Shown: positions 1-17,546 of the stretch, in pieces
How positions within the stretch are numbered: the first letter of the stretch is position 1
Layout of the letters: every line of letters begins with the position of its first letter
IMG/VR virus record: IMGVR_UViG_3300047160_009474
Location: 1 to 53,362 of that record
Origin: a virus
Direction: 5' to 3' (one strand)
Length of the DNA: 53,362 nucleotides
Program-made: the position numbers and the translations under genes
The notes under the pieces: generated by a model
Told to the model about the DNA's origin: nothing
The model's input: the letters and a program-made list of their open reading frames with translations, nothing else
Databases searched by the model: none

Positions 1-97
1 CAACTCTCAACCATTGGCGCGATGAGAGCACCGCATGGCGAACCGGCCACCAAAGTAGGCAAGGTCCTGGGCACCACCGGCAGGCTCCTCTCCTGGA
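1..97. repeat. Terminal overlap copy 1, identical to 53266-53362 (circular or terminally redundant genome, unit 53,265 bp)
   Basis: Base-by-base comparison of both window ends gives an identical 97-mer caactctcaaccattggcgcgatgagagc...ggctcctctcctgga. Confidence 0.95.
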
Positions 98-1143
98 CCG
101 ACCGGACCACCCGCTTAGTGCTGGATGATGCCTTTAAACAACTCACCGCTGAGGGGCTGGTCCCCAATACCGAAACGGCTCGGCGCGAATACACCAACCA
201 GCTGGGCCAATACAATCGCCGGGCTCAGGGGCTCATTGTGAAAATCTTCCGCGACACCGGCTTTGGACCTTTTGTCACTGCCGGGCGCACCTTCCTAGCC
301 ATGGGCTGGCGCATGGGGACCCTCTCCCCGGGAGTGCCCGCCACCAGTCTCAAGGCTGCCGCCGCCCTCCGCGCCAATGTCGCCACCAAATGGATCGGGG
401 CTTTCGCCCTGTTGGCCGCTGCCAATTATCTCCTGACCAAGCACCTGAAAAACGGCGGGGTCATGGGCCGACCGGGCACTAAGTTTGGCAACATTGATAT
501 GGGCTACAACGACAAGTCCGGGAAGATGGTTCAGTTCCCCCTGATGGATGCGCTGGGGTTGGGCAAGAGCCTCCATGTTGAGGGAATTCGCGGAGCGGTT
601 GATGCCTACCGGCTGGGGCTGACCCCGGGGGACATGGTCGATGCCGCCGCTCGCGACATCATCAACTCTGACATCGCGCCCTTCGCCGGTCCTCCGGTGA
701 AATTCGGAGTCACCGCCATCTCCGGTTATCCTGCTGCAGTGAATGTGGGCCGGGTCTCGACCATCGTTCCGCCCGGTCAGAGCCAGTTCGCCGAAAACCT
801 GAGTGAAGCGATGAAGCAGGCCAACCCCATGGTCACCGGGGCTCGCAAGCTTTATGCGGGTAAATCGGCTGCGGAAGTCCTCTCCACCCAAATCCCCCGC
901 TACTCTCTTGCTGCGGGCAAGACCGAGGCCACTGCCCAAAACTATCTCAAGATTGTCACCCTGGCCCAGGCCGCACAATACACCGATGGCATCGTGCATG
1001 ACGCACGGCGGCTCCCACCTGAGGAACGCCTCAAATTTGTCTCTGACCAGATCAATCGAATGGCCCCGGACCTGCGGCCCCATGCCTGGAAAGAAATGCG
1101 CCGTCGACGGGTCTTTGCCCTGCCTCAATCAATGGAGAAATAA
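1..1143 (+). CDS. 3' part (last 380 codons) of the giant ~2,280-aa virion-associated protein ORF that starts at 47566 and crosses the junction
   Basis: The frame from base 1 (QLSTIGAMRAPHGE...) is the same peptide that ends the window. Stop TAA is at 1141-1143. Track ORF 22..1143 is only the internal-Met remnant. Confidence 0.85.
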   Translation, partial: QLSTIGAMRAPHGEPATKVGKVLGTTGRLLSWTDRTTRLVLDDAFKQLTAEGLVPNTETARREYTNQLGQYNRRAQGLIVKIFRDTGFGPFVTAGRTFLAMGWRMGTLSPGVPATSLKAAAALRANVATKWIGAFALLAAANYLLTKHLKNGGVMGRPGTKFGNIDMGYNDKSGKMVQFPLMDALGLGKSLHVEGIRGAVDAYRLGLTPGDMVDAAARDIINSDIAPFAGPPVKFGVTAISGYPAAVNVGRVSTIVPPGQSQFAENLSEAMKQANPMVTGARKLYAGKSAAEVLSTQIPRYSLAAGKTEATAQNYLKIVTLAQAAQYTDGIVHDARRLPPEERLKFVSDQINRMAPDLRPHAWKEMRRRRVFALPQSMEK

Positions 1144-1148
1144 AAACT

Positions 1149-1346
1149 ATGAACATCAACCTGCACAACGCACTGGCGATTGCCATCCTCACCGTCCTGT
1201 CCCTGGCCTTCTGCGGCCTGTGGCATGATCGGGTCAACGTCTGGCAGTCCCTGAAGAAGACCGACACCATTGTCTTTGCCGTCATCTTCATCATCCTCTT
1301 CATGCTGGGCCAGCACTGGAACATCCTGCTCTTCGAACCCAGCTAG
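1149..1346 (+). CDS. Small membrane protein with two hydrophobic helices (holin-like size and position; function unproven)
   Basis: ATG lies 6 nt after the giant-ORF stop, with GGAGA about 10 nt upstream. Hydrophobic stretches AIAILTVLSLAFCGLW and IVFAVIFIILFML. Confidence 0.6.
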   Translation: MNINLHNALAIAILTVLSLAFCGLWHDRVNVWQSLKKTDTIVFAVIFIILFMLGQHWNILLFEPS

Positions 1347-1367
1347 AGCTAGATTTAGCGGACGGGT

Positions 1368-1424
1368 AAAAAAGGGCGGCACCAAGGGAGTTGCATGACT
1401 CAGGACTCGTTAATGATGCCGCCC
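1368..1424 (-). terminator. Putative intrinsic terminator for leftward (minus-strand) transcription
   Basis: GGGCGGCA (1374-1381) pairs with TGCCGCCC (1417-1424). On the minus strand the stem is followed by U6 (A6 at 1368-1373 on plus). The ~35-nt loop is unusually long. Confidence 0.4.
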
Positions 1425-1639
1425 ATAGCCAATCCATACGAACCATTCCATTGCGAACGAAGCACGGGTCCGTATGCCAATCGGTTCCCCCCTTTTTTAA
1501 AACTGGCGCGGGGTCATTACCAAACCGCCGTTCAACCTTTCGGTCAATGTAGTCCGATAAGCGGACCCCGCATTAAAGCATGGGGCTGGTGTAAGCCAAA
1601 CCCCACACGCTTATCACAAGTAGTTTCCCAAAATAATCT

Positions 1640-1659
1640 GTTGACAGATTAGTGTCAAC
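1640..1659. promoter_or_regulatory. Late-type inverted-repeat motif, perfect palindrome GTTGACA-gattag-TGTCAAC (contains TTGACA)
   Basis: 1636-1665 shares ATCTGTTGACA-N9-CAACGTGCGA with the copy upstream of the capsid gene (27521-27550, minus strand). Confidence 0.6.
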
Positions 1660-2265
1660 GTGCGATTGGGGCTTCATGGTTTACGAGACCCAGGATAGTC
1701 GCGAAGTTCAGATTTCGGTCTACGCGCCGAAACTTCAGACTATCCAAAGCGTAACCGAGGGGCGTCCTAGTCCGACCACCCTCAAACCCTCTGGTGCTCG
1801 TAACGCCAGAGGACATTTTGCCCCGGGTCGAAGTAACAGGGTTATCTTATCAGCAATGGTAATTCGAACCCCCTGTGACAAACCTTATCCGGGGCTTTCC
1901 GCACAAACCCATGGCCACCCTTTGGCCTGGCACTCCCACATCCTCAAAGGCATTGCTGCCCTTGGAAAGCGGGGAGTCCACCGGCCTAGGTCCCCCGCAG
2001 AGAGGATTAACACCTCCGCAGGATATCGACCGAATCCGCCCGCCCTGGACTGTGTCTGCGGAAGAAGTAAGAATCCCGGCTAAGGCCCTGCAGCCTCGTC
2101 ACAGATTATAGCCCTGGATTCGACCGGAGCAGTCGGAAGCTCTCCGACCCCGGAACCAACCATTGGGGGCGGTGTGTGTACAAGAGAAAGGCTCCCGGAG
2201 AATGCAACAACCCCAGGAGCCTCAAGGAAGCCAAACGAACCAATGACGTTAACCACCCTACCTCC

Positions 2266-2285
2266 GTCGCCACTCCACTGTCAAC
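2266..2285 (-). promoter_or_regulatory. Late-type inverted-repeat motif copy (minus-strand reading GTTGACA-gtggag-TGGCGAC)
   Basis: Minus strand GGTGTTGACAGtggaGTGGCgACGG closely matches the copy at 33229-33248, GGTGTTGACAGaataGTGGCaACGG. Confidence 0.5.
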
Positions 2286-2707
2286 ACCCCCCGAGGGGGC
2301 TCCCCCCAAAAGCCCGGACGCTAAGACCACAGATCGAAAGCACCGACACTCCCAGGGGACCCCCCTCCCACCAAGAGCTGGAGTTACCACAAAACCTACC
2401 CCCTGTCCAGTAACCCGTTGTGCCGCCAAATCTCCACCACCACGTCCTGCTGACGAAACCGCGCCTCGTTAATCCGTGAACGCACCTCCACCGGAAAGAC
2501 CCGCTCGGTCGCCATCGCCCGACACTCCCGCTGCCATAACCTCCCAACCGCAACCACATCCCGAGGCCGAGGTGCCCGCAACCGCACCGTTCTACGTGGA
2601 ACCGTTGCCATATCCCTGACACTGCCACATCGTCAGGCGAATCGTCAAAATACCCGGTGGATCGTCGGGGTGATCATCGCATAGCCCCCGGCGGCAAAAG
2701 GGATCAT

Positions 2708-2732
2708 GGGGTGGGGGGCGGTGGGGGTGGGG
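2708..2732 (+). other. Canonical G-quadruplex-forming tract GGGGTGGGGGGCGGTGGGGGTGGGG
   Basis: Four or more G-runs of at least 4 separated by 1-4 nt, read directly. It lies 19-43 nt beyond the stop of the minus-strand gene 2751..3215. Confidence 0.5.
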
Positions 2733-2750
2733 CTCGACACAAAGCATGCT

Positions 2751-3215
2751 TCATCCTGGCTCACTGGCTCCATTGTCACTCGACTGGCAACCATTGCTTT
2801 CCTGCTTTGGTGTAACTGGCTCAATATCAAGTACTTGTCCATTGTCGAGTGGACTACTACCAATAGTCGATTCTAGATTAAGTGACGAAAGCCCGTGATA
2901 CGTGGGGGGTTTTTCGGGGTGATACTGGCCCGGCCCGGGGATTTGGGCAACGTATGTCCATGCTCGGAATATGCGATCATACGCTCGGGTTAACCCGTCG
3001 TAAGCCTTAAAGCCAGTCGCTTTCAATAGGGCTTCATACAATCTCTCTTTCAATACGCTTAGGCGGGCAAGCTCCACCGCAATGGCTTCCGCACTGATTA
3101 CGGGTACTACCGGGCCGAGCGTACCGGGGTAAAGCTTCGCCAGTTTGTTCTGTTTCCGCTTTTCGTGGCCCCGGGCGGACATCTCCCGGGCATTTTGCGG
3201 AGTAAATAGCGGCAT
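2751..3215 (-). CDS. Hypothetical protein with a basic N-terminus (possible DNA-binding or small-terminase-like role, unverified)
   Basis: Track ORF 2751..3326 trimmed to the internal Met (MPLFTPQNAREMSARGHEKRKQNK...). Its acidic or polar C-terminus looks disordered. Confidence 0.45.
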   Translation of the reverse strand: MPLFTPQNAREMSARGHEKRKQNKLAKLYPGTLGPVVPVISAEAIAVELARLSVLKERLYEALLKATGFKAYDGLTRAYDRIFRAWTYVAQIPGPGQYHPEKPPTYHGLSSLNLESTIGSSPLDNGQVLDIEPVTPKQESNGCQSSDNGASEPG

Positions 3216-3317
3216 GCTGGGAATAGTCGCCCCGGGCCGCAGTGGGGTCAAGCAGTCGACTGGCTTTTGTGTCCCCCCAGGATGGAAAAATAAACCACGG
3301 TTGAGCGGGGTACACTG

Positions 3318-3346
3318 TTGACACATTGTGCCACATTCGGTAACTT
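3318..3346 (+). promoter_or_regulatory. Sigma70-like early promoter TTGACA-17-TAACTT with operator ATTGTGCCACATT in the spacer
   Basis: -35 at 3318-3323, -10 at 3341-3346, operator at 3325-3337. It sits at the head of the plus-strand early block. Confidence 0.6.
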
Positions 3347-3388
3347 AGGAGGAGTCGGGGCAATGAAGCCCGGCGAAACAAATAGAAA

Positions 3389-3397
3389 GTGACGCAG
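3389..3397 (+). promoter_or_regulatory. GTGACGCAG box 3 nt upstream of the start codon
   Basis: aatagaaaGTGACGCAGtttATG. The same extended context, aatagaaagtgacgcag, occurs at 4895-4911. Confidence 0.5.
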
Positions 3398-3400
3398 TTT

Positions 3401-3733
3401 ATGACATCGATCGAATTATTCAACGTTGCCCGGCAATTGGGCTTTCAACTCCAAAGTGTACAGAAATGCCCCGACTGTGGGCAGGTCTCAACTAAGCTCA
3501 CAAATTCAGTAGTGAAGTACTGCAAACATTGCGAGCATAATGTTACCGGAGGAGTTTGTTATCACGGTCAAACCGATGCCACAATTGATATGCTCGACTG
3601 CCAGGATTGTGGCGTTGCCCGGGCTGATTTTATCCGGGGCGCACAAGATACCATCCGGGAACAAATCACCTTTTTAGAGGATGTGCCTTGTGTCGACTAT
3701 GACGACTACAAAGCCAAATTCGCCCGCCTTTAG
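3401..3733 (+). CDS. Small Cys-rich (zinc-ribbon-like) early protein
   Basis: ATG at 3401; the track start at 3389 is the GTG inside the box. CxxC pairs: CPDCG, CKHCEH, CQDCG. Confidence 0.7.
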   Translation: MTSIELFNVARQLGFQLQSVQKCPDCGQVSTKLTNSVVKYCKHCEHNVTGGVCYHGQTDATIDMLDCQDCGVARADFIRGAQDTIREQITFLEDVPCVDYDDYKAKFARL

Positions 3734-3742
3734 ATAGTGCCC

Positions 3743-3786
3743 CACGTTGAGCCCCGGGCCACGCCTAGGGGTTCACTGTGACGCAG
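3743..3786 (+). repeat. Early intergenic hairpin element copy 1 (13-bp stem) ending in TGTGACGCAG
   Basis: CACGTTGAGCCCC (3743-3755) pairs with GGGGTTCACTGTG (3768-3780). It lies just after the stop at 3733. Confidence 0.75.
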
Positions 3787-3873
3787 TATTTAAACAATCA
3801 ATCGCCCGGGGCGCATGCCATCCGGGGACTTTTGTCCCCACTGCGTCACCATGCTCCTGGGCAAATCATGAGA

Positions 3874-3882
3874 GTGACGCAG
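3874..3882 (+). promoter_or_regulatory. GTGACGCAG box 1 nt upstream of the start codon
   Basis: gagaGTGACGCAGcATG. An inverted copy ACTGCGTCAC lies at 3840-3849. Confidence 0.5.
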
Positions 3883-3883
3883 C

Positions 3884-4609
3884 ATGATCAATTCGATCGA
3901 AACTATCCCCAGTAGGGGAATAAAACCCACAGTACTAAAACATCATCCCCGGTTCACCATTCCTGAACTTGTCCCCCTCAACGTGGGGCTTGCTTGGGAA
4001 TTAACTGGCGGACTATCGGAGCCCAGTAAAATGCCTTGCCATGGCTTTTCTACCCCTGCCCGGCGTTGCAACGTGGGGACAAAATTGCGCGAAGTCCCCG
4101 GTTCAATTTGTGAAATCTGTTACGCATTTGAACGTGGCAGGTATGGCTTTGAAGTAGTCCAGTTAGCTTTGGAGCGTAGGTACGAAGCTTTAATGAATGA
4201 GCCCCGGTGGACTGAAGCAATGGTCTGGCTCATTAATCGCTTTGAAAAGTCGGGGTACTTCCGCTGGTTTGATTCCGGGGATGTTCCTGACTTTGCCGCA
4301 TTGGAGAAGATCATTGAAGTAGTCCGCCAAACCCCCAGGATTAAACACTGGCTCCCTACCAAGGAATACGGGCTGATATCGCAATGGGTCAAAGCCCATG
4401 GGGCTTTTCCTAAAAACCTGACTGTACGCTTGTCCGCCTACATGGTGAACGGTGCCCCCCCTCGCGAGCTCGCCAAGCGTTTAGGGGTTTTAACATCCGG
4501 GGTTAAAAAACGGGGCTTTTCCTGCCCGGCATCATTGCAAGGCAATCAATGCGGGGAATGCCGCACCTGCTGGCAAAAACGGGGCAACGTTAACTATCAC
4601 AAGCATTAA
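3884..4609 (+). CDS. Cys-rich early protein, 241 aa (resembles, from memory, the phage 'gene product 88' type family; unverified)
   Basis: Long ORF with an ATG start. Motifs CEICYAFERGRYG, FRWFDSGD and a C-terminal CGECRTCW. Confidence 0.7.
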   Translation: MINSIETIPSRGIKPTVLKHHPRFTIPELVPLNVGLAWELTGGLSEPSKMPCHGFSTPARRCNVGTKLREVPGSICEICYAFERGRYGFEVVQLALERRYEALMNEPRWTEAMVWLINRFEKSGYFRWFDSGDVPDFAALEKIIEVVRQTPRIKHWLPTKEYGLISQWVKAHGAFPKNLTVRLSAYMVNGAPPRELAKRLGVLTSGVKKRGFSCPASLQGNQCGECRTCWQKRGNVNYHKH

Positions 4610-4614
4610 TTCCT

Positions 4615-4821
4615 ATGGAAGCCAATCAAAAGATCGTCAAATTGCGCCTTGTACGTAAAAGCGAAACAGCGGAATGGCTTGTGAAAGTTTGGGTGTGGGT
4701 AGGTGGCAAGTGGCTTTATTCGGAACTGGCAACGTATTACACGGATGATAAAGGTGACGCAGTAGCCACATTGTCAACCATGGCCCGGCAGTACTCCGCA
4801 CAAGGCTATTCACTTCTTTAA
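4615..4821 (+). CDS. Hypothetical small protein (68 aa)
   Basis: ATG lies 6 nt after the preceding stop. The sequence is non-repetitive and contains an internal in-frame GTGACGCAG (4754-4762). Confidence 0.6.
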   Translation: MEANQKIVKLRLVRKSETAEWLVKVWVWVGGKWLYSELATYYTDDKGDAVATLSTMARQYSAQGYSLL

Positions 4822-4902
4822 GCGCAATGATCACCCCATGCCCCCGGGCTGCAATCCCGTGGGGTATTGGGTGGCAATTACGCCACAAAAAACCAATAGA
4901 AA

Positions 4903-4911
4903 GTGACGCAG
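4903..4911 (+). promoter_or_regulatory. GTGACGCAG box 1 nt upstream of the start codon
   Basis: aatagaaaGTGACGCAGcATG. Confidence 0.5.
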
Positions 4912-4912
4912 C

Positions 4913-5227
4913 ATGAAGATTAGAAAACTCGCAACACCCCTCGGAAAGTACCGAGGCAAAAAGTACTATCGTTTCACCGTGTACTTTGAACAGTCTGGCA
5001 TAGGCTGGAATATCTCACGACCCATGGCGATCATTGCCAGTAGCGCGATCGAGGCATGCAACGCCATTCGGAACGAATTCGCCCATACGCTGGAGTACCC
5101 GGCGGAGTTTATTTGTTGCGGCCCGGCAGGGGGCAGGGTTGATCGCTTTGTCGGGTGGGAGTCAATGATCTGGGCTAAAATGGTTTCGACAATTCGCGGG
5201 CAGGAACAAATCCCACTACCCCTCTAA
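4913..5227 (+). CDS. Hypothetical protein (104 aa)
   Basis: ATG-initiated ORF directly behind the box. Confidence 0.65.
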   Translation: MKIRKLATPLGKYRGKKYYRFTVYFEQSGIGWNISRPMAIIASSAIEACNAIRNEFAHTLEYPAEFICCGPAGGRVDRFVGWESMIWAKMVSTIRGQEQIPLPL

Positions 5228-5231
5228 ACTT

Positions 5232-5606
5232 ATGACATCCAAACATAAAGAGCTCTTTTTTGTGAGCTCAACCGATGGTTGCCTACTGAGGCAAGATACT
5301 TGTCAGGTCGTACGCAAAAACTATTGCGGCCACCATATGCACATTGCGGACAATGAGGATTTTAAGGCTACACTCCGGGCCGGGCCTTACACTTTCCCGG
5401 GCTGCTATCCGCTCTTCTTTATCACCCGGGATAGTGGCGCAATTTGCTTCCCATGTGCTCAGAGGGAAGCCCGGCGAATAATGTCGAGCATTCGATCGGA
5501 TTGTAATGACGGGTGGCGCATAGAGGCATGCGACGTAAACTATGAGGATCCTCAACTCATGTGTGACCATTGCTCAAAGCCGATCCAATCAGCCTACGGA
5601 GATTAG
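5232..5606 (+). CDS. Cys-rich hypothetical protein (124 aa)
   Basis: ATG lies 5 nt after the preceding stop. Motifs FPGCYPLFFITRDSGAICFPCA and LMCDHCSKPI. Confidence 0.7.
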   Translation: MTSKHKELFFVSSTDGCLLRQDTCQVVRKNYCGHHMHIADNEDFKATLRAGPYTFPGCYPLFFITRDSGAICFPCAQREARRIMSSIRSDCNDGWRIEACDVNYEDPQLMCDHCSKPIQSAYGD

Positions 5607-5676
5607 CTAACACATGGGGCCAGGACAAACATTCTGGCCCCTTTCCGCATAGAACCAAAAACCAAAAAAGAGGAAA

Positions 5677-5685
5677 GTGACGCGC
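5677..5685 (+). promoter_or_regulatory. Variant box GTGACGCGC 4 nt upstream of a start codon
   Basis: aggaaaGTGACGCGCtgatATG. Confidence 0.4.
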
Positions 5686-5689
5686 TGAT

Positions 5690-5860
5690 ATGGAAACAGT
5701 ACCAAGCACACAGACGGGGCCGATCGAGAGTTCGATCGAGAGCTCGAACCCGATCGAGAGGCCCGATGTCTTTGCCATCTACCAGCTCCTCCGCAGGCAC
5801 AAGATTGAGGCTAAATATGTGGTCGAGTTTGCCCGCATTTTGCTCAACTCCACAGCGTAA
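5690..5860 (+). CDS. Small ORF (56 aa), below the track threshold
   Basis: METVPSTQTGPIESSIESSNPIERPDVFAIYQLLRRHKIEAKYVVEFARILLNSTA. It is preceded by the box variant and carries CGATCGAGAG three times. Confidence 0.45.
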   Translation: METVPSTQTGPIESSIESSNPIERPDVFAIYQLLRRHKIEAKYVVEFARILLNSTA

Positions 5861-5871
5861 TCTGATTGATT

Positions 5872-5915
5872 CACATTGAGCCCCGGGCTAAGGTCTAGGG
5901 GTTCACTGTGACCCA
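5872..5915 (+). repeat. Early intergenic hairpin element copy 2
   Basis: CACATTGAGCCCC (5872-5884) pairs with GGGGTTCACTGTG (5898-5910). It lies just after the stop at 5860. Confidence 0.75.
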
Positions 5916-5953
5916 AATAGGCCACATTAACATTAACCATCAAAACTAAGAAA

Positions 5954-5962
5954 GTGACGCAG
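5954..5962 (+). promoter_or_regulatory. GTGACGCAG box 3 nt upstream of the start codon
   Basis: aagaaaGTGACGCAGaatATG. Confidence 0.5.
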
Positions 5963-5965
5963 AAT

Positions 5966-6352
5966 ATGAGTGAACAAAAACCGAAACCCGATCAAGAGCT
6001 CGACCACAGACGATCGAGAGCTAACCCAATGAGCATTCTCGACTACATCAAGGCAGTGGATGAGGCCTTGGAACATCGCTACTGTGTCAGCATTGCGGAG
6101 GCTGGCATTGATGCGGCTGAGTTACTCACCGCCCAGGCGGAAGGCTGGAGCCCAGAGCAGTATGTCGAGTGGTTTGGAGAGAAGCACGACCTGACCGAGA
6201 AGAGCCAGTGGGACCTAGCTAAGGCCGTTGCGGAGTTAGCCCCCCAGTTCTGTTCCATGTGCGAGGGTCCCTTGATGCTGTTAGGAAGCTTGGGAAACCT
6301 CGCGCACTACCGGTGCCGTAATTGTGGCTTAGACTTTTCCCGTGGAGTGTAG
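5966..6352 (+). CDS. Hypothetical protein with a C-terminal zinc-ribbon-like motif (128 aa)
   Basis: ATG at 5966; the track start at 5954 is the GTG of the box. C-terminal CSMCEG...YRCRNCG. Confidence 0.7.
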   Translation: MSEQKPKPDQELDHRRSRANPMSILDYIKAVDEALEHRYCVSIAEAGIDAAELLTAQAEGWSPEQYVEWFGEKHDLTEKSQWDLAKAVAELAPQFCSMCEGPLMLLGSLGNLAHYRCRNCGLDFSRGV

Positions 6353-6360
6353 CCTACTCT

Positions 6361-6407
6361 CACGTTGAGCCCTTCTCAGGCTGGGGGGAGGGTTCACCGT
6401 GGCGCAG
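6361..6407 (+). repeat. Early intergenic hairpin element copy 3 (compensatory changes keep the stem)
   Basis: CACGTTGAGCCCT (6361-6373) pairs with AGGGTTCACCGTG (6389-6401). It lies just after the stop at 6352. Confidence 0.75.
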
Positions 6408-6512
6408 GCATTTTAACGCAGGTGACACATCATCATGCGGATGAAAAACAGAATAACCACAAACAACATCGATCGAGGCATCAAAACTGCCTACGGGGCG
6501 ATCGGGGGAAAG

Positions 6513-6521
6513 GTGACGCAG
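6513..6521 (+). promoter_or_regulatory. GTGACGCAG box overlapping a candidate GTG start
   Basis: ggaaagGTGACGCAGTGgca. Confidence 0.4.
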
Positions 6522-6703
6522 TGGCACAAGAGACAAAATACAAAGTATGGATTCATGTGACTAAAACCGATGCCTTTGATCCTGAGGATTCGACCGATAT
6601 CGCGGCAATGGATGAAGTAGCCTCGTTTCAAAGCGAAGACGAGGCCTTTCGATTTGTCGAGCGGCTAAAGTCGTTTCTGCCGATCATCGACCAGTCGGAA
6701 TAA
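6521..6703 (+). CDS. Small acidic hypothetical protein (~60 aa; start uncertain)
   Basis: In frame with track ORF 6365..6703, whose TTG start would run through the hairpin repeat. The GTG at 6521 abuts the box. The C-terminal part, VWIHVTKTDAFDPEDSTDIAAMDEV..., looks protein-like. Confidence 0.4.
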   Translation: MAQETKYKVWIHVTKTDAFDPEDSTDIAAMDEVASFQSEDEAFRFVERLKSFLPIIDQSE

Positions 6704-6717
6704 AGCAAAGATTCCAG

Positions 6718-6747
6718 TTGCAGGTTGTGCCACAACGAGCCTACTTT
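6718..6747 (+). promoter_or_regulatory. Sigma70-like promoter TTGCAG-18-TACTTT with perfect palindromic operator GTTGTGCCACAAC
   Basis: Operator at 6724-6736 abuts the -35. It lies upstream of the coupled gene set 6882-7805. Confidence 0.5.
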
Positions 6748-6881
6748 AGGACGTTTGTGACACAGGGACACATAGAGATAGACTTTTGTCCTGCTCCCAG
6801 GGAGCCGTGGGTTGCGCCCCGGTCTTTCAGGCTTTGCGGCCTGACTGCGTCACCCCCTGGGGGTAGGGCATTTTCGCATTT

Positions 6882-7049
6882 ATGAAAGCACCACAACTAC
6901 TCACACCCTTCGAACTGGCAATGCTGGCCGCACCATTCATAACCAACCTCAACCTGACCACCGAGGAAGCCTTCCTCCGGGCTCAGGAGCTGTTCTATGC
7001 GGCGGCGGATTACCTTCGGGAAAATGAAATACACCCAGATCAAAAGTAA
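6882..7049 (+). CDS. Small ORF (55 aa), below the track threshold
   Basis: MKAPQLLTPFELAMLAAPFITNLNLTTEEAFLRAQELFYAAADYLRENEIHPDQK. Its stop overlaps the next ATG (TAATG). Confidence 0.5.
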   Translation: MKAPQLLTPFELAMLAAPFITNLNLTTEEAFLRAQELFYAAADYLRENEIHPDQK

Positions 7050-7309
7050 TGCACCCGCCGGTTGGAAGCATGATCACCATTTGGCCTGAGGGTTCTCCCG
7101 AGGCCGAGGCCACTGCCACGCTATTGCTTCTCTCGGACAATCAGTTGAGTGCGGCCTTCGCCTTTGAGCACCTGCCCCGGTGGTACAACTCCTTTCCCGG
7201 GACCTTTATCAGCCTGGGCGAGGTGATCATGTTGGTGATCCGCCAGGACAAGACCGACCCCTGGACGGATCTGCGCGACGGTAAACACTACACAGTTAAA
7301 GAATTATGA
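7049..7309 (+). CDS. Hypothetical protein (86 aa)
   Basis: ATG overlaps the upstream stop, and its own stop overlaps the next ATG (ATGA). Confidence 0.6.
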   Translation: MHPPVGSMITIWPEGSPEAEATATLLLLSDNQLSAAFAFEHLPRWYNSFPGTFISLGEVIMLVIRQDKTDPWTDLRDGKHYTVKEL

Positions 7310-7485
7310 AAAGCCACCGACAAAAGCCCACCGACCGCAGAATGGACGCAGCGATCAAGGTTAAACTTCCCCGGCCCTGGTACCAAGATCTGAAGTTCCT
7401 GGCTGCCTGCGACTACGAGACAATTTCAATGCAGGTCCGCAGGGCGATTCGCCTATACCTCGATACCCGCCGGATCCACAAATGA
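7306..7485 (+). CDS. Ribbon-helix-helix (CopG/Arc-like) small DNA-binding protein (59 aa), below the track threshold
   Basis: AAIKVKLPRPWYQDLKFLAACDYETISMQVRRAIRLYL fits a beta-strand plus two helices pattern. ATGA overlaps on both sides. Confidence 0.55.
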   Translation: MKSHRQKPTDRRMDAAIKVKLPRPWYQDLKFLAACDYETISMQVRRAIRLYLDTRRIHK

Positions 7486-7805
7486 AAAAGTTTGGCCGAT
7501 ATATCCTGGTCGATGGCAAGCCGGTGCCTGAGCTGGACCTGATCAGGTGGGCCGAGTGGTTTGGTAAAACCTCCAATCGCGCTGTGGCCAGCACCCAGGT
7601 GGGTAAATCCAACATCGATACCTGCTTTCTGGGGATCGACCACAATTTCCACGTTAATGGACCCCCCATCCTCTGGGAGACACTCGTCTTTGGCGGACCA
7701 CTCCAGGGCACCATGGACCGTTGCGCCGGGTCCCGGGAACAGGCCGAGGCCATGCATGCCAGCATGGTTGAACGGGTCAAGCAGGCAAAAAAGATTTGTC
7801 CCTAA
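7482..7805 (+). CDS. Hypothetical protein (107 aa)
   Basis: ATGA-coupled to the RHH gene. Motif FLGIDHNFHVNGPPILWETLVFGG. Confidence 0.65.
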   Translation: MKKFGRYILVDGKPVPELDLIRWAEWFGKTSNRAVASTQVGKSNIDTCFLGIDHNFHVNGPPILWETLVFGGPLQGTMDRCAGSREQAEAMHASMVERVKQAKKICP

Positions 7806-7845
7806 CCGTCCGTAACCAACAACACAAAAAAAGAAAGGTCTGAAA

Positions 7846-8064
7846 ATGAACGATACACCAGCAACAAAACAACCCGACCAACGCATTCGCGCTTTGGTTT
7901 GGATGATCCTGTGCATGCTCGCCTATCTGGCCGTGATCACCGCCACTTACTTCTTATTCTTCCAGAGGGGTGACTGGCGCAGTGGGGTCGGAGTCTTTGG
8001 GGGCCTGTGCGTGATCACGTACCTACTGGCGATAGTTGCGCTCTTCAAACCTCACCGCCAATAA
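7846..8064 (+). CDS. Small membrane protein with two hydrophobic helices (72 aa)
   Basis: Hydrophobic stretches LVWMILCMLAYLAVITATYFLFF and VGVFGGLCVITYLLAIVALF. Confidence 0.65.
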   Translation: MNDTPATKQPDQRIRALVWMILCMLAYLAVITATYFLFFQRGDWRSGVGVFGGLCVITYLLAIVALFKPHRQ

Positions 8065-8088
8065 CCTCCTAACCGAGCTAACCCTATT

Positions 8089-8910
8089 ATGAAGAACAAA
8101 TTCTGTGCTGGCCAGTTTGGCGTTTCGATCCTGCTGGCTTCAATCTTTGCGACTCTCACCCCCATGCAGGCCGGTGCCGACAGTGGCGTGACAGTCAAAG
8201 TGCAAACTCTCACCGTCTATGTGCCTGCACCACCAGCTGGCCAACCGTGGCAACTGCCTGCCTCCATCCCGGAGAAGCTGCGAGGCAAAGTTCTGGAGCT
8301 CATCGGAATCACTCCCCCAGGCGTTCCCATAGTCATCGCGCCGGAAGGAACCTCACCCACCCTCATTCAACAGGCCAAAACCGCCGCCATAAAGCAGTCC
8401 ATTGTCACGCAGGGAGCCGGGCCTGCCGGGCCAACTCCACAGTCCTGCCTGGCCTGTGTTCTGGTCATCATCCTGGTCGTTGTCTGCGGAGTGGCCATCT
8501 ACGTGGTTTGGAAATGCGCTAAAAAGATAGACAAGGTCAACACCAACACCGGTCCAGGCGACCCGGCCATTCTGCGCCAGCTTCCACCGGCTCAACCCTC
8601 GGCCTTCCCCCCAACCTTAAGCGGTGACGACTCCAACTCGACCAATGCCTTCTGCACCATCGAAGGGACTACCGACCTCTCCGCTCCCAACTGGGCACCG
8701 ATGTTCACGCTGGTGTGTGTCACCAATGCTGACGGGATCCCCAGCGTTTATGCCATGAACCCGAGCAATATTCTGGTCGGTGCCTCATCGGTAATAACCA
8801 ACTCGGCCAACCCGGCTGAACTGGATACCACCACTCCGCTCAACCTGCCCTATCCAGGTCCAGGCCCAACACCACCCAACCTCTTCTTTCGGATGAACCT
8901 GCACAACTAA
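8089..8910 (+). CDS. Signal-peptide-bearing, membrane-anchored surface protein (273 aa); candidate lysogenic-conversion or exclusion gene
   Basis: N-terminal VSILLASIFATLTPMQAGA, a central helix CLACVLVIILVVVCGVAIYVVW, a Pro-rich linker, and a position next to the integrase. Confidence 0.65.
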   Translation: MKNKFCAGQFGVSILLASIFATLTPMQAGADSGVTVKVQTLTVYVPAPPAGQPWQLPASIPEKLRGKVLELIGITPPGVPIVIAPEGTSPTLIQQAKTAAIKQSIVTQGAGPAGPTPQSCLACVLVIILVVVCGVAIYVVWKCAKKIDKVNTNTGPGDPAILRQLPPAQPSAFPPTLSGDDSNSTNAFCTIEGTTDLSAPNWAPMFTLVCVTNADGIPSVYAMNPSNILVGASSVITNSANPAELDTTTPLNLPYPGPGPTPPNLFFRMNLHN

Positions 8911-8932
8911 AAGCAATCTCTTCTAAAAAGGG

Positions 8933-8975
8933 ACACCCCCTGGCTGATAAAGGCCAAGGGGTGTTTCTGTTTTTA
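8933..8975. terminator. Bidirectional intrinsic terminator between convergent genes
   Basis: ACACCCCCTGGC (8933-8944) pairs with GCCAAGGGGTGT (8953-8964) with one mismatch. A T-run follows at 8964-8975 and an A-run precedes at 8925-8930. Confidence 0.7.
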
Positions 8976-8987
8976 CTGCTGCCCTAC

Positions 8988-10199
8988 TCAGTCCTTCAGG
9001 ACAGCTTCGGGGGTTAACGCCCAGAACTTGGCAGCCTCCTCCGGTTTAACCAGTTTGCGGTAGTGGGAGAAGAGAATCCCCCAGTCGCCATGCCCCATTG
9101 CGGCCATGGTCTTGTCCACCCCGTGAATCGGCAGGAAGTTGGAGGCAAACGTGTGCCGCAGGACATCCTTGCCCCAACCATTCCAGAGGATTTTCTTGTA
9201 GTAATGGTGCTTGGTCGGATCCTTCTTGCGGGTCTTCTTGCCTTTGACGTTGGTTAACGTGATGAGCCCGGCTGCGGCCCGGACATCCCGGAACCGTTCG
9301 GCATGATTCTTGGGGTTGTACTCACCACCTGGGACCGCCAACCATGCCTTGAGTGTGTCATGGATTGGGACATAGCGTAACTGCTTGTCCTTGGCATGCG
9401 AGGCGGGGACTTCCAGCATGTCCCCCTGGATATGCACCTTGCTCAATTTGCGGGCTTCCCGTATCGGTCGGCACCCGGCAAACATCCCGCAAGCGATGAA
9501 GGGAATCAGGCCAGGATCGGTCTTCAAGGCGGCTCTCAGGAGTGCCCTGCATTGCTCCACAGTTAAGATATGAGGGGCTTTGTCGAACCCGGGCATCCTT
9601 TTCTTCGGAATCATCTTAAAAGCGTCCGTTGGCAGTTCTGTGACATACTTGTGTTTCTTGCAGTAACCAAAAAAGTTCTTCAAGGCGCACAGGTTGGCAT
9701 TCTTGTTCTGGGGGTGCATATCCTGCTGGGTAAACCACTGCCTGAGCATGTCAATGGTCACCAGGGCGACCTCCAGTTGCTCCCGGCCCCGGATGAACTT
9801 GTTAAGCTGGCACCGGTAAAACTTGAGCGTGTCCTTGGACAGACCGTCCGCCTTTTTATCGACCATGTATTCGTTAAAGGCATCCTCCAGGGTCCGCCGG
9901 GCCAGGGGTTTATTGGCAATGTTCTGGAAGGCCTGCCACACGGTGCGGAGCGCAATTCCCTTGCGGCTAATCTCCTCCAAGATCGTGAGCGTATCTAATC
10001 TGACTGCCGGGTTCATCTGGGTCCAAAACTCCGACTCCCCGTTCAGGGCCAGGACCGATTCCTGCTCGGCTTTGGCAGCCTCATACCCATCGAAGAACTT
10101 GCGCTGCCGTTTCTTCTCACCGTTCTCATCGGGCGTGAACCAGGACACCATGTATTGCTCTTTGTCCCGGACTTTTACTTTGTTGATCGTCACTTTCAT
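8988..10199 (-). CDS. int: Tyrosine recombinase (phage integrase), 403 aa
   Basis: C-terminal catalytic pattern ...LRHTFASNFL...GHGDWGILFSHYRK (R, HxxR, H, Y). N-terminal SAM-like or arm-binding region. Confidence 0.85.
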   Translation of the reverse strand: MKVTINKVKVRDKEQYMVSWFTPDENGEKKRQRKFFDGYEAAKAEQESVLALNGESEFWTQMNPAVRLDTLTILEEISRKGIALRTVWQAFQNIANKPLARRTLEDAFNEYMVDKKADGLSKDTLKFYRCQLNKFIRGREQLEVALVTIDMLRQWFTQQDMHPQNKNANLCALKNFFGYCKKHKYVTELPTDAFKMIPKKRMPGFDKAPHILTVEQCRALLRAALKTDPGLIPFIACGMFAGCRPIREARKLSKVHIQGDMLEVPASHAKDKQLRYVPIHDTLKAWLAVPGGEYNPKNHAERFRDVRAAAGLITLTNVKGKKTRKKDPTKHHYYKKILWNGWGKDVLRHTFASNFLPIHGVDKTMAAMGHGDWGILFSHYRKLVKPEEAAKFWALTPEAVLKD

Positions 10200-10432
10200 T
10201 TTTTAACCTTTCGTTTGATGTTGTTACTAACAGTTACAGTATGTGGCAGCAAAGTGACAACGGCAAGCAAAAGTTTGAGTTGGTCTGCAGCCGTTTCTAC
10301 GCAGTCGCGAATTCATGCACACGCTGGTACCATTGATTAAAAGCATGATCGCCTTTGTTTATGCGGGTGAAATCAATTTTCCGTAAGGTGCGATTCGATT
10401 TAATTTCCGGGATTGTCAGTTTCCTCAGGAAA

Positions 10433-10741
10433 TCACCGATTTTTCCCAGCATTGCCACTTTTGTTGACAGAATCGGCCCGGTAGAACCTAAAAACGAAGT
10501 ATCCAGGGACTGCGGCGAAGACCAAAAAGACCACCCCGCTGTAGCGGCGAGACTCGCGCCATTTTGCCTCAGGAACGTACTCGCCGCTCCAGCCGTCCAT
10601 CACCCCGCCATCGACCCTTGCGGCCTCCCCGCCAGTGCCCCACCACTCGACCCCGGCAGGGGTAAAACCGACCGAGAGAAAGTAACCAGCCAGGAGCAAA
10701 AGTCCGACCGTAACAACCATTAGTTTGGCTTTATCACTCAT
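10433..10741 (-). CDS. Membrane protein (102 aa) in the lysogeny region
   Basis: Hydrophobic stretches LMVVTVGLLLLAGYFLSVGF and VVFLVFAAVPGYFVFRF. Confidence 0.55.
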   Translation of the reverse strand: MSDKAKLMVVTVGLLLLAGYFLSVGFTPAGVEWWGTGGEAARVDGGVMDGWSGEYVPEAKWRESRRYSGVVFLVFAAVPGYFVFRFYRADSVNKSGNAGKNR

Positions 10742-10917
10742 GTGACCCTAAGTTCGGATTGTACTAAGGTGTAATAGGATCACTACGGAACAGGGATGCA
10801 ATAACCCTTTACACATAATCACTTGGTGTTACAGTCCTGTCGCGGGTATCCCTGTTGGAGAATCGACCATGAATATACCAAAAAACTATAGGTCCATGCC
10901 TGATGAACAGCTCAAGC

Positions 10918-11262
10918 TCATCTCTGCCGGGTTGCGGCAACGAGCTCGCGAGGTAGATGAATACGTCCGGTGCCGCCAGAAGCACCAGCACCGGCAATTA
11001 CCACCGCCGCCTCGCCACGTTCAGCCTGCTCAATGGCCGCATCGACTTCTTCTAAATTGATGCCGTGATTGTGCAGGTACTCGACCAGGGCATCCCGGGC
11101 CATCTGGCTCTCGGTGCTCTCCCTGATCACTGCCAAGGCAGCCCATCGCATCTTGAACTTCTCACCGACCCGGATGCGGATAAATTCGTCCTTAACTGCC
11201 TTTTTGAAGAATTTGCTGGAGAGTTTCTTCTGATTTTTCCGCGTTTTCATTGGTTTTTTCAT
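10918..11262 (-). CDS. Ribbon-helix-helix regulator (114 aa), candidate lysogeny repressor
   Basis: Trimmed to MKKPMKTRKNQKK.... RHH core FIRIRVGEKFKMRWAALAVIRESTESQMARDALVEYL. It is divergent from a second RHH gene. Confidence 0.6.
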   Translation of the reverse strand: MKKPMKTRKNQKKLSSKFFKKAVKDEFIRIRVGEKFKMRWAALAVIRESTESQMARDALVEYLHNHGINLEEVDAAIEQAERGEAAVVIAGAGASGGTGRIHLPRELVAATRQR

Positions 11263-11431
11263 CGTTGTTTGGTCGTTGTCGCCTGTCGGTGGATAAAAAG
11301 CTTGCACTTCTCTGTTTTGTACCACGTTTGGCCCACAAGTCAATCCGAATCACCAATGAAATCAGGGTAAGTGGCTGGTGAATAAGTACTTTTTGATTTT
11401 ATTTAAAAAACGTGCCACTCTAGTTGCACCT

Positions 11432-11614
11432 ATGGCGTACGAAGTTTTAAACGAAACCATTCGGACCAGGGTGTCGCAAAGAATGCGGCAGGCAGTGGAG
11501 GATCTGGCTAACCATCAAGGGATCAAGGTCTCTCGGCTGTGCCGACTGGCTTTCCATGAATATGTCCAGAAGAACACCCGCAAGGGCGGCAAGATAAAGG
11601 AGGTCGTCTGGTGA
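11432..11614 (+). CDS. Ribbon-helix-helix regulator (60 aa), candidate Cro-like antagonist
   Basis: MAYEVLNETIRTRVSQRMRQAVEDLANHQGIKVSRLCRLAFHEYV. It heads the plus-strand middle operon. Confidence 0.6.
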   Translation: MAYEVLNETIRTRVSQRMRQAVEDLANHQGIKVSRLCRLAFHEYVQKNTRKGGKIKEVVW

Positions 11615-11889
11615 GCCCCCCTGCCCCATTCCTGCAATCCTGGCTCAACCTGACCGAGGCTGCGGCCTGGATGCGGATAGCACCCCGCAAACTGGCGGCA
11701 TTATCCAAACACAGGGGCTCCCGGATACCTGCCGTCTGGTTTAACCGTCAGACTTGCATTTTCAACCCGGCAACCATCATCGCCAAACTGGCCGGTGAGC
11801 GCAATGTCGACCCGGAAATGATCCGGGCCATCCTCAACCAGGAACCAAATGGCAAGGACCATGAAGAACATCTACCCCTACAAACCTGA
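11611..11889 (+). CDS. Helix-turn-helix protein, excisionase/AlpA-like (92 aa)
   Basis: GTG start overlaps the upstream stop (GTGA). The WLNLTEAAAWMRIAPRKLAALSK motif is typical of Xis-type HTH. Confidence 0.5.
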   Translation: MSPPAPFLQSWLNLTEAAAWMRIAPRKLAALSKHRGSRIPAVWFNRQTCIFNPATIIAKLAGERNVDPEMIRAILNQEPNGKDHEEHLPLQT

Positions 11890-12169
11890 TGAAGCCGGGG
11901 AAGAGTTGCTGGCCTGGGCCAGGAATAACGACCCCCAGACTTCGCACGATGCGGCCCGGCGAATCACCCCGAAGGTCAATAAGCTGGAAGCCGAGACCGT
12001 CAAAGTCCTGAAGGAAAAACCAGAAGGCCTAACCACCCAGGAGATTTCGGATGCCACCGGCATCGAATATCGTTCGATAACCCCGCGCATGCAGCCCTTG
12101 GTCCGCAAGGGACTGGTGTTTAATTCGGGAGCCCGCCGGGATGGGCGCATCGTCTGGAAACCAGTATGA
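11849..12169 (+). CDS. Winged-helix (MarR-like) DNA-binding protein (106 aa)
   Basis: LTTQEISDATGIEYRSITPRMQPLVRKGLV... fits a wHTH pattern. It overlaps the upstream gene by 41 nt, so the start is uncertain. Confidence 0.55.
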   Translation: MARTMKNIYPYKPDEAGEELLAWARNNDPQTSHDAARRITPKVNKLEAETVKVLKEKPEGLTTQEISDATGIEYRSITPRMQPLVRKGLVFNSGARRDGRIVWKPV

Positions 12170-12693
12170 AAAACGCCGACATGCCGATGATGACTGCCGC
12201 TAGCTACGGCACATCGACTGACATTACCTGGTCGGAAAACACCACTGGCGCAACCGGGTGGGGACCTGCCGGGCCGCAGGGTTCACCTGGGCCACTCGCA
12301 CAGGAATTTCAACGATTGGCGCAGCAGTCGCACATCGATTACCGCTCGCCCCAGCGGGAACGCAGAATAGTTCAAACCGAAACATCAATCGAAAGTGAAA
12401 CACACATGTCATCACCCAACCGCAGAATTGTTCAAGTCTTCATCGCCGACCCCAATGAAAATGTCCCGCTGGAAGAGTCGGTGCTTTTCAAGGGCGACCA
12501 GAAGCTCACCGATGCCACCGACACTGAGCTCTTCTTTGAAGTGCCCATCGCCGACATCCTTAAAACCCACAACGAGAAACGAGTGAAGCTCCTGGATAAG
12601 GATGCCACTAAGAAAGCCGGGAAGGATGTCCTCCTGGACCCGGTAAAGATCCGCGAATTGAAAATGGTCGTCGTCACCATTGCCTCGTTCTAG
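12166..12693 (+). CDS. Hypothetical protein (175 aa)
   Basis: ATGA-coupled. The C-terminal half, RRIVQVFIADPNENVPLEESVLFKGDQKLTD..., looks globular. Confidence 0.6.
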   Translation: MKNADMPMMTAASYGTSTDITWSENTTGATGWGPAGPQGSPGPLAQEFQRLAQQSHIDYRSPQRERRIVQTETSIESETHMSSPNRRIVQVFIADPNENVPLEESVLFKGDQKLTDATDTELFFEVPIADILKTHNEKRVKLLDKDATKKAGKDVLLDPVKIRELKMVVVTIASF

Positions 12694-13157
12694 TGAACCG
12701 GAAACAGAAAATCTTCACCACTGAGAAGCAGGTCCTGGATGCGATCGAGGCCAACCTGAGCAAAGCCCAAACCAAATGGCAGGAGAGTTTCAAACACTGC
12801 GAGATATCCAGGGAGAAGTTCCTGCAGGCCGGTCAGTTCGAAGATGCTGCTTCCCTGAGCACCGGCTGGGTTCCCTGCCCCCAGTGCGGCGGCAAATCCA
12901 AGGGCAAGGTCAACACCGAGGACTTCTGTGTGGTCTGCCGGGGGATGGGCAAGGTCAATCGCGAGGCCCTGCTCTCTTATGCCGCCGGGATCCGCGAGCA
13001 GGCCAAATGGCACCGGGGCGAGGCCGACCGGCAGGCCCGTGGGGCAAAGCGATTGATCGACAAGAAAGGACCGGTCTTAAAGCAGGCCCTGGCCGAAATG
13101 CGAACCCCCAGTTTCGACTTTGCGCCTCAACTGCCGGTCGTCATGAAACCCGTATGA
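12693..13157 (+). CDS. Protein with a DnaJ-type CxxCxGxG zinc-finger pair (154 aa)
   Basis: CPQCGGKSKG...CVVCRGMGKV. GTG start overlaps the upstream TAG by 1 nt. Confidence 0.55.
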   Translation: MNRKQKIFTTEKQVLDAIEANLSKAQTKWQESFKHCEISREKFLQAGQFEDAASLSTGWVPCPQCGGKSKGKVNTEDFCVVCRGMGKVNREALLSYAAGIREQAKWHRGEADRQARGAKRLIDKKGPVLKQALAEMRTPSFDFAPQLPVVMKPV

Positions 13158-13429: not shown

Positions 13430-13481
13430 CGGACGCAACTAGCAACCCCTGGTCCGGGTCGCTGGCACCATTTAAAAGCCT

Positions 13482-15483: not shown

Positions 15484-15495
15484 ACAAGGAACCAT

Positions 15496-17485: not shown

Positions 17486-17546
17486 GTCGAGTAACGGGGC
17501 GAGTCACCTCGCAAGGGACCAAAACACGAAACCAAAAGGTTAACAA

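Follow-up and report, generated by a model that had tools for sequence, protein, structure and literature searches.

Phages and prophages are known to produce large non-coding RNAs (ncRNAs), of which GOLLD and ROOL are highly structured (~580-800+ nt), accumulate during lytic growth and form RNA-only nanocages (PMC12286853, PMC5737381). Likewise, the most abundant phage transcript observed by RNA-seq in Vibrio phage ICP1 is an RNA of ~800 nt that derives from a gap of ~1 kb between gp139 and gp140 lacking open reading frames (ORFs) (PMC7567579). Herein we describe a block at positions 1368-2285 of IMG/VR virus record IMGVR_UViG_3300047160_009474, a metagenomic contig of a soil-type phage, the full 53,362 nucleotides of which are referred to below as the window. 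Judging from its sequence, we hold the chances to be evenly balanced that this block yields a functional ncRNA from a leftward (minus-strand), terminator-bounded transcription unit, and we place somewhat greater confidence in the narrower proposal that leftward transcription ends at position 1368. We classify the block as an orphan among the large phage non-coding transcription units.

The block is located in the interval that follows the tail operon and precedes the early operon, within the largest non-coding-like gap of the genome (1347-3388). An initial annotation, made from the sequence, described 1368-2285 as free of ORFs, and this description holds for a longer stretch than was claimed, since the truly ORF-free part extends from 1347 to 2395. 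Hexamer coding scores are positive for none of the ORFs in this interval, whether the model was trained on long ORFs or self-trained. The period-3 signal that is present in the flanking genes is absent from ~1350 to 2220. Each of the three stop codons is distributed across all six frames of the block, and stop-codon recoding was rejected on this ground. The longest ORF in the block (143 amino acids, 1652-2083, plus strand) has no match among 1.84 billion representative proteins, and none of the block ORFs matches Pfam or PHROGs. Hexamer usage, periodicity and the search for homologs therefore all fail to identify the block as a protein-coding gene.

A predicted intrinsic terminator marks the left end of the unit. 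On the minus strand, positions 1424-1368 form a hairpin with the arms GGGCGGCAUCA...UGGUGCCGCCC, which pair through 8 GC-rich base pairs and 3 additional pairs, enclose a structured interior of 29 nt and are followed directly by U6 (-24 kcal/mol). The 8-bp GC stem recognized earlier is thus extended to 11 bp, and its estimated distance of ~20 nt from the stop codon of the converging operon (1346) was measured as 22 nt. When all 83 runs of at least five T residues on both strands of the whole genome were scored for an adjoining hairpin, this terminator ranked third in stability, behind the two faces of a strong bidirectional terminator at 8929-8970. A simple terminator scan (loop of 3-8 nt) missed the hairpin because the 29-nt interior exceeds the textbook size. 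The arrangement expected of a Rho-independent terminator, in which a GC-rich hairpin leads directly into a U-tract, is present on the minus strand only. Given that no U-tract follows the hairpin on the plus strand, the terminator is assigned to the minus strand, and minus-strand transcription is expected to arrive there. Upstream of the terminator, the segment UAAAAAAGGGGGGAACC (1483-1499, minus strand; A6G6AACC at 1498-1483) can pair at 14 of 16 positions with the terminator 3' arm and U-tract (1383-1368). This pairing constitutes the minimum-energy fold of the 149-nt 3' segment, and it could serve as an alternative anti-terminator or as a helix that seals the 3' end. The bidirectional terminator at 8929-8970 is itself an intrinsic terminator (-24 to -26 kcal/mol, with T5 on both strands) that separates the convergent genes 8089-8910 (plus) and 8988-10199 (minus).

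Two promoter-like sites of the sigma-70 type are oriented toward this terminator. The pattern TTGACA-N16-18-TAnnnT has three matches in the genome, where 0.54 are expected and 3 of 100 shuffled sequences reach this number, and all three are found within 1630-3346. The upstream site in the block (2284-2255, minus strand; TTGACA-18-TAGGGT) combines a perfect -35 element with a minimal TAnnnT -10 element and agrees with the consensus at 9 of 12 positions, with an inferred start at ~2248. The downstream site (1658-1630, minus strand; TTGACA-17-TATTTT) agrees at 10 of 12 positions, with an inferred start at ~1623. The latter is the sole promoter-like match of a simple scan over 1-6000 and the best canonical promoter in that range. 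Both block sites conform, as sequence matches only, to the definition of a sigma-70 promoter that we applied (TTGACA, 16-18 nt, TAnnnT or TATAAT). The third match (3318-3346, plus strand; TTGACA-17-TAACTT) is located at the head of the early operon and served as the reference for this promoter class. If both block promoters are used, the predicted products are a long RNA of ~880 nt (1368-2248, minus strand), the ends of which are taken from the promoter and terminator, and a short RNA of ~255 nt (1368-1623, minus strand) with the same 3' end.

Each of the two block promoters is overlapped by a dyad motif. A search of the whole window with the pattern TGTTGACA-N6-TGNCAACG, allowing at most 2 mismatches, returned seven matches where 0.16 are expected, a number reached by none of 100 shuffled sequences. 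These matches correspond to 1639-1660 (counted on both strands) and, on the minus strand, to 2265-2286, 27526-27547, 28886-28907, 33228-33249 and 39919-39940. The four copies from 27526-27547 onward occupy intergenic positions upstream of structural genes on the minus strand, one of which encodes the large terminase. Alignment of the copies shows conserved arms (GTTGNCA / TGNCAAC) with, in most cases, a mismatch at the central arm position, and no compensatory changes are evident. Because the arms are conserved in sequence without compensatory changes, we consider the dyad better explained as DNA bound by a dimeric protein than as a hairpin in RNA. A motif scan of IMG/VR produced 58 single, unrelated matches. 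Within the window, two more occurrences of TGTTGACA, at 20627-20634 (minus) and 10462-10469 (plus), are not part of a dyad and have no TAnnnT at 16-18 nt; the one at 20634 is inside the 3' end of a gene for a 1464-amino-acid protein and points at the convergent junction with 18945-20213 (plus).

On the minus strand, which from 2288 onward has the sequence GGTGTTGACAGTGGAGTGGCGACGG, the copy at 2265-2286 reads TGTTGACA-GTGGAG-TGGCGACG and differs from the consensus at 1 position. A motif copy had been reported at 2266-2285, and our coordinates agree to within 1 nt. The copy at 1639-1660 carries perfect 7-nt arms (GTTGACA at 1640-1646 and TGTCAAC at 1653-1659), and it is probably the highest-affinity site for the putative dyad-binding protein. 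Its earlier description as perfectly palindromic applies to these arms and not to the 6-nt spacer, which is not palindromic. Viewed as RNA, the same copy folds into a hairpin of 7 bp with AGAUUAUUUU behind it, which on the minus strand resembles a weak terminator for transcripts that begin at 2248. We also considered whether the two block dyads are the terminal inverted repeats of a miniature inverted-repeat transposable element, but this candidate was rejected given that there is no target-site duplication and that the dyad also occurs singly at four promoters.

The surroundings of the dyads fall into two classes. The four copies associated with structural genes have an A/T-rich upstream flank, lack a TAnnnT -10 element at 17-18 nt and are followed by a second element, which is GACACTA at exactly +53 from the motif start for the copies at 28907 and 33249, GACATAA at +55 for the copy at 27547 and ACACAAA at +60 for the copy at 39940. 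These GACACTA-type elements are at 27493, 28855, 33197 and 39881 on the minus strand, and GACACTA has just five occurrences in the genome. This arrangement suggests that the structural-gene promoters are bipartite, with a predicted activator site ~45 bp upstream of a non-canonical core. In contrast, both block copies lack a GACACTA-type element and instead place a TAnnnT -10 element at the canonical distance from TTGACA. The 2286 copy was described as a copy of the late-gene motif in the same orientation as those preceding the capsid, scaffold and cassette genes. However, apart from the dyad itself, it has neither the A/T-rich flank (its upstream flank is GC-rich) nor a GACACTA-like element at +53 to +60, and it carries TTGACA-18-TAGGGT. 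Since the block copies share TTGACA-N16-18-TAnnnT with the early-operon site, we group them with this early promoter of the host sigma-70 type rather than with the structural-gene promoters. They are probably host sigma-70-type promoters with a dyad operator over the -35 element and spacer, probably of the early rather than the late type. The 'late' label given to the unit is therefore not supported.

The role assigned to the internal palindrome also changes. It had been entertained as an internal RNA hairpin, a roadblock or an opposing promoter. On the plus strand, the 1640 copy has the dyad and an A/T-rich flank, but it exhibits neither a TAnnnT -10 element nor the downstream element of the late class. 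Because both core elements are missing in that direction and TTGACA-17-TATTTT is present in the other, we rank a nested promoter of the same direction as the first, giving the ~255-nt RNA, above an opposing one, and it is more likely that the palindrome is a second minus-strand promoter.

Predicted folding provides additional evidence regarding strand. For the 880-nt stretch, z-scores (which are noisy, being based on 16 shuffles each) are -5.47 for the minus strand and -3.04 for the plus strand, and 28 control segments of 880 nt from coding regions have a mean of -0.81 (standard deviation 1.24, minimum -3.14). A separate run on 1360-2290 gave ~ -3.6 for both strands. Among 150-nt windows, evaluated with 200 shuffles, 1501-1650 (minus -3.5, plus -1.5) and 1876-2025 (minus -2.75, plus -1.7) favour the minus strand. 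Helices predicted with high probability comprise 177 pairs on the minus strand, 27 of which are G-U, and 130 on the plus strand, 6 of which are G-U. The structure most specific to the minus strand is found in the interval of the short RNA (1368-1623; z -2.6). This interval includes a long minus-only hairpin at 1508-1571, composed of an 8-bp GC base, a 10-bp stem with 4 G-U pairs and an apical UUGACC-GAAA-GGUUGA stem that closes a GNRA loop. A second minus-only hairpin is predicted at 1938-1970, with 13 bp, 3 G-U pairs and a GCAA (GNRA) tetraloop. The plus strand also has one GNRA-capped hairpin (GUAA, ~1586-1597). Folding thus favours the minus strand, but not decisively. As for what precedes, the sequence elements of the unit, their rarity, the missing coding signal and the excess of minus-strand folding are direct observations.

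Collectively, these features describe a leftward non-coding unit in the control region that separates the tail operon from the early operon. We infer from the sequence that the promoters fire, how they are regulated and that RNA is the functional product, and the mechanism we propose is as follows. Two tandem promoters of the host sigma-70 type (2284-2255 and 1658-1630), each with the phage dyad operator across its -35 element and spacer, would fire toward the terminator at 1424-1368 and thereby generate coterminal RNAs of ~880 and ~255 nt with many stable helices. A single dimeric phage protein could couple these RNAs to the early-to-late switch through the common dyad. Its binding would most likely cause repression at the block, where the dyad covers the -35 element and spacer, and activation at the late genes, where the dyad lies upstream. 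The sole lead for such a protein, and a weak one, is the 106-amino-acid, winged-helix-like product of 11849-12169 (plus strand), which has weak winged-helix matches (B-block_TFIIIC at 24.4 bits, with TrmB and MarR_2 below threshold). If the RNA is the functional product, it would be expected to be a stable structured RNA that, as with other large ncRNAs of phages, acts in trans or serves as a scaffold or decoy. The most far-reaching version of this proposal, which we put forward tentatively and regard as doubtful, is that the block represents a new class of large structured phage RNA (~0.9 kb, with a ~255-nt 3' core) that is wired to the switch through operator-overlapped promoters. Such an RNA would be an RNA-only effector, for example a scaffold, decoy or sponge that host RNA polymerase synthesizes as infection begins and whose production is shut off or boosted once the dyad-binding protein appears. 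The discrete minus-strand transcription unit proposed in the initial annotation accordingly stands as the best reading on the strength of rare promoter matches, a top-ranked terminator, the lack of coding signal and the excess of minus-strand folding, whereas its promoter class and the role of its internal palindrome do not.

Searches for related RNAs and sequences returned little. Rfam cmscan yielded no matches in the whole window at gathering thresholds, and searches of 1200-3500, 1355-1680 and 1600-2420 at E up to 10 with lax filters gave only chance-level matches. The best of these scores were 25.4 bits for a nematode sRNA (gathering threshold 38) and 12 bits for HEARO (gathering threshold 83), with the rest at or below 17.5 bits. 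In the block, no group I or group II intron, RNase P, tmRNA, 6S, HEARO, OLE, riboswitch or ribozyme model came near its gathering threshold, and ARAGORN detected no tRNA or tmRNA in the 53-kb genome. A search of INPHARED with the block by blastn gave nothing. Exact-word scans with the block gave only chance matches in IMG/VR and none in GTDB genomes, although such scans have low sensitivity for diverged RNAs.

Some local resemblances within the block were pursued and rejected. A 77-nt element at 1820-1896 combines a 7-bp closing stem with a UUCGAAU sequence, but it has no cloverleaf and its only Rfam match is the nematode sRNA below threshold. A resemblance by eye to CR-I and CR-V of RNase P (GGAAAGCCCCGG ... 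CGCUUAUCGG) is not accompanied by any Rfam model match. A replication origin was also considered, but the block has no iterons, no tandem repeats and no enrichment of DnaA boxes, and the GC skew of the whole genome is uninformative. Four DnaA-box-like sites with 1 mismatch each are clustered at 11175-11709, none is in the block, and the genome total is not above chance. As a trans-antisense target, we examined a similarity between 1953-1989 and 32310-32346, through which the minus-strand RNA is complementary over ~37 nt (~80%) to the mRNA of the late gene 32059-33090 (minus). The BLAST-level p value is ~0.003 by shuffles, and the predicted duplex (-60.9 kcal/mol) is weaker than the mean best duplex of shuffled sequences (-63.0 kcal/mol). 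This candidate was rejected and is left as a lead.

Related contigs were sought through the adjacent tail protein. Its relatives, at 41-57% identity only, are found on 23 contigs; none was found in IMG/VR or in GTDB genomes. In the nearest relatives (L068-L070, at 55-57% identity, and L004), the place occupied here by a 65-amino-acid membrane ORF and the block is taken by two plus-strand genes for proteins of ~90 and ~425 amino acids. These gene pairs follow the tail gene at 2235-3777 in L068, 1305-2937 in L069, 2423-3976 in L070 and 2069-3652 in L004, and encode proteins of 89-90 amino acids (118 as called in L069) and 422-436 amino acids. The larger protein has a Pro/Ala/Thr-rich N-terminus, and both members of the pair are absent from the window phage. 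A tblastx comparison of the block with the related contigs under normal statistics revealed nothing above noise. Two ENA contigs with tail-protein relatives also encode TnpB-like proteins (OrfB_IS605 / Cas12f1-like_TNB) and a ddrB-ParB domain protein (L002, 502-1599; L003, 7747-8862), which are absent from the window.

Several observations weigh against a functional ncRNA. The TAGGGT -10 element of the upstream promoter is weak (3/6) and fails promoter-scan criteria, the 1640 copy matches the 22-nt dyad consensus with 0 mismatches in the plus orientation and 2 in the minus orientation, and the folding z-scores are moderate, with the window 1726-1875 folding better on the plus strand (z -2.9) than on the minus strand (z -1.2). 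The 23 contigs that carry relatives of the tail protein lack the block, the dyad and anything similar to 1347-3400. Because no homolog of the block was found, there is no covariation and no sign of purifying selection to draw upon. Moreover, the genes of this genome are mostly devoid of Shine-Dalgarno sequences, so ribosome-binding-site logic is no guide and small unconventional ORFs may be present. With these points in mind, an unlikely but by no means negligible alternative is that the block is a regulatory or insulating spacer, in which the dyads act as operator or titration sites for the switch protein, leftward transcription and the terminator shield the convergent tail operon from early-left transcription and oppose late plus-strand read-through into the early operon, and the RNA is a by-product. 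In keeping with such a role, the block sits exactly where the 14-kb late operon of the plus strand, itself lacking a plus-strand terminator, gives way to the early operon of the same strand. The block is also absent from all related contigs, as dispensable sequence would be, its two dyads form an inverted repeat separated by 604 bp, and most of its helices are Watson-Crick on both strands. Yet ~900 bp far exceeds what operators and a terminator need, the minus strand folds beyond all 28 control segments, and the minus-strand-specific G-U helices with GNRA loops go unexplained by a spacer. If the RNA does prove dispensable, the locus would still illustrate cleanly how, in nature, a non-coding stretch bounded by a terminator can buffer convergent and tandem operons from one another.

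The second scenario of the initial annotation, in which plus-strand transcription from the 1640 copy converges with minus-strand transcription from the 2286 copy, would give complementary RNAs across ~1680-2250 and hence double-stranded RNA or transcriptional interference. The perfect plus-orientation match of the 1640 copy to the consensus, its possession of the A/T-rich upstream flank of the gene-associated copies, and the better plus-strand fold of 1726-1875 are all in keeping with this scenario. So is the 83% identity over 36 nt, flanks included, between this copy and the one at 27547, which suggests a common origin, and in the PLE satellites of ICP1 an abundant transcript is likewise flanked by inverted repeats (PMC7567579). 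We nevertheless consider convergent promoters improbable, since the plus-strand copy has neither a TAnnnT -10 element nor a GACACTA-type element at +53 to +60, and its A/T-rich flank is the TATTTT -10 element of the minus-strand promoter. The sole plus-strand terminator-like site ahead of the early operon, moreover, is a weak hairpin inside an ORF (2892-2906). More improbable still is that the block is a decayed protein-coding remnant, either of the relatives' ~90- and ~425-amino-acid genes or of a lost lysogeny or accessory module, with helices and motifs that are incidental. The occupation of this position by the gene pair in L068-L070 and L004 speaks for such decay, the plus strand of 1950-2700 is C- and A-rich like the nearby plus coding strand, and tblastn without composition correction aligns the Pro/Thr/Ala-rich N-terminus of the 425-amino-acid family to plus frames at 2087-2590. 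However, these alignments fall in several frames simultaneously and are confined to the low-complexity part, whereas the conserved C-terminal ~320 residues have no match and tblastx was likewise at noise level, and a pseudogene of either gene is not supported. Decay would also leave unexplained why two of the three sigma-70-type matches in the genome and a top-ranked terminator occur here in the correct order and orientation. Finally, we think it very improbable that the block is explained by small or unconventional proteins, such as those of a 58-amino-acid ORF at 2256-2080 (minus) or an 85-amino-acid ORF at 1395-1652 (plus), that were overlooked due to low Shine-Dalgarno use or leaderless mRNAs. 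Several ORFs of 40-140 amino acids do exist in the block, and the ATG codons at 3215 and 28869 have a leaderless appearance in a genome where most genes have no Shine-Dalgarno sequence. Even so, all hexamer scores are negative, there is no period-3 signal, the 143-amino-acid ORF has no homolog, the GTG at 2256 falls inside the predicted -10 element and upstream of the inferred start, and no ORF begins at either inferred transcription start.

The preferred reading of a leftward ncRNA unit can be placed in the context of the whole genome. The window bears a 97-bp terminal direct repeat (1-97 = 53266-53362), and it is therefore a circularly assembled, complete phage genome with 53,265 unique bp. 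The circle junction is spanned by a tail ORF that exceeds 1000 amino acids and continues into 22-1143. The early/middle region (~3389 to 20213, plus strand) includes genes for an ERF recombinase, a PDDEXK nuclease and a GP88-like protein. The structural region extends on the minus strand from 39875 down to 20331, with the large terminase at 38118-39875, and the plus-strand tail operon begins at 40173, crosses the junction and ends with the stop codon at 1346. The phage genome has no DNA match in INPHARED, and nearly all of its proteins lack a Pfam or PHROGs match. Leaders in this genome are mostly A-rich, and the scarcity of Shine-Dalgarno sequences hints at a host with low usage of this signal.

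Two orphan ORFs with the same orientation as the block occupy the remainder of the gap. Directly upstream of the block, an arginine-rich ORF of 71 amino acids (2396-2611, minus strand) exhibits a period-3 signal that fits its frame. Its only database match is the contig's own 39-amino-acid gene call (JGI), which corresponds to the C-terminal 39 residues. The arginine-rich N-terminus of this ORF (MATVPRRTVRLRAPRPRD) is reminiscent of arginine-rich RNA-binding peptides. Between the ORF and the 2286 motif is a GC-rich 13-bp inverted repeat (2293-2367, minus strand) with no U-tract. The second ORF (154 amino acids; 2751-3215, minus strand) also has a period-3 signal in frame and was called by JGI as well. 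Its ATG (3215) is positioned 7 nt past TTGACC-17-GACTAT (3215-3251, minus strand) and thus appears leaderless, and read-through from this ORF could also enter the block. A second leaderless-looking start is the in-frame ATG at 28869 (minus strand), ~39 nt past the start of the 28907 motif. Inside the 154-amino-acid ORF, the plus strand forms the weak, plus-strand-specific hairpin CCCGUG-AUA-CGUGGG (2892-2906), followed by GGGUUUUU (to 2916).

Some characteristics of the block are familiar from other phage systems. The morons of lambdoid phages comprise a protein gene with its own promoter and terminator inserted between conserved phage genes. The block is similarly a promoter-to-terminator cassette, located at the end of the tail operon and absent from relatives, which carry other genes there. 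However, morons carry a protein gene whereas the block has no coding signal, and the presence of the phage's own dyad at the block promoters suggests that the unit is part of the phage programme and not independent of it. Dual-mode switch proteins, such as p4 of phi29 and CI of lambda, occlude and thereby repress early promoters, and they activate late promoters by binding upstream of them. The two placements of the dyad, over the -35 element and spacer in the block and ~45 bp upstream of another core element at the structural genes, correspond to this scheme, except that the binding protein is here only a candidate (the weak winged-helix product of 11849-12169) known from sequence alone. The locus would also reveal a regulatory grammar, in which one dyad is placed over sigma-70-type promoters in some cases and ahead of a distinct core element of structural genes in others, in a phage lineage where almost no protein has a recognisable domain.

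Among large phage ncRNAs, GOLLD and ROOL resemble the block in being discrete, ORF-less phage units of roughly a kilobase. Nevertheless, neither the GOLLD covariance model, which covers a conserved, pseudoknotted 3' half, nor the ROOL model has a match at the gathering threshold or at E up to 10, and the tRNA neighbourhood that is frequent for GOLLD is missing from this genome, which has no tRNA genes. Because both the model matches and the tRNA neighbourhood fail, we do not consider the block a member of either family. Its structure also differs in being a predicted fold without covariation support. The ICP1 RNA is similar in being phage-borne, in arising from an ORF-less interval of ~1 kb that is not beside tRNA genes, and in its size, as the block is predicted to yield a discrete RNA of ~0.8-0.9 kb. 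In ICP1, the transcript was demonstrated by RNA-seq, whereas transcription of the block is deduced from sequence, and the block has no sequence similarity to anything in the phage collection searched. Conversely, tandem promoters overlapped by a dyad operator are a characteristic of the block only. GOLLD, ROOL and the ICP1 RNA are abundant and yet without known function. The block contributes control elements that can be tested, namely two promoters, a common operator and a terminator, through which it would become possible to learn at what stage such an RNA is required.

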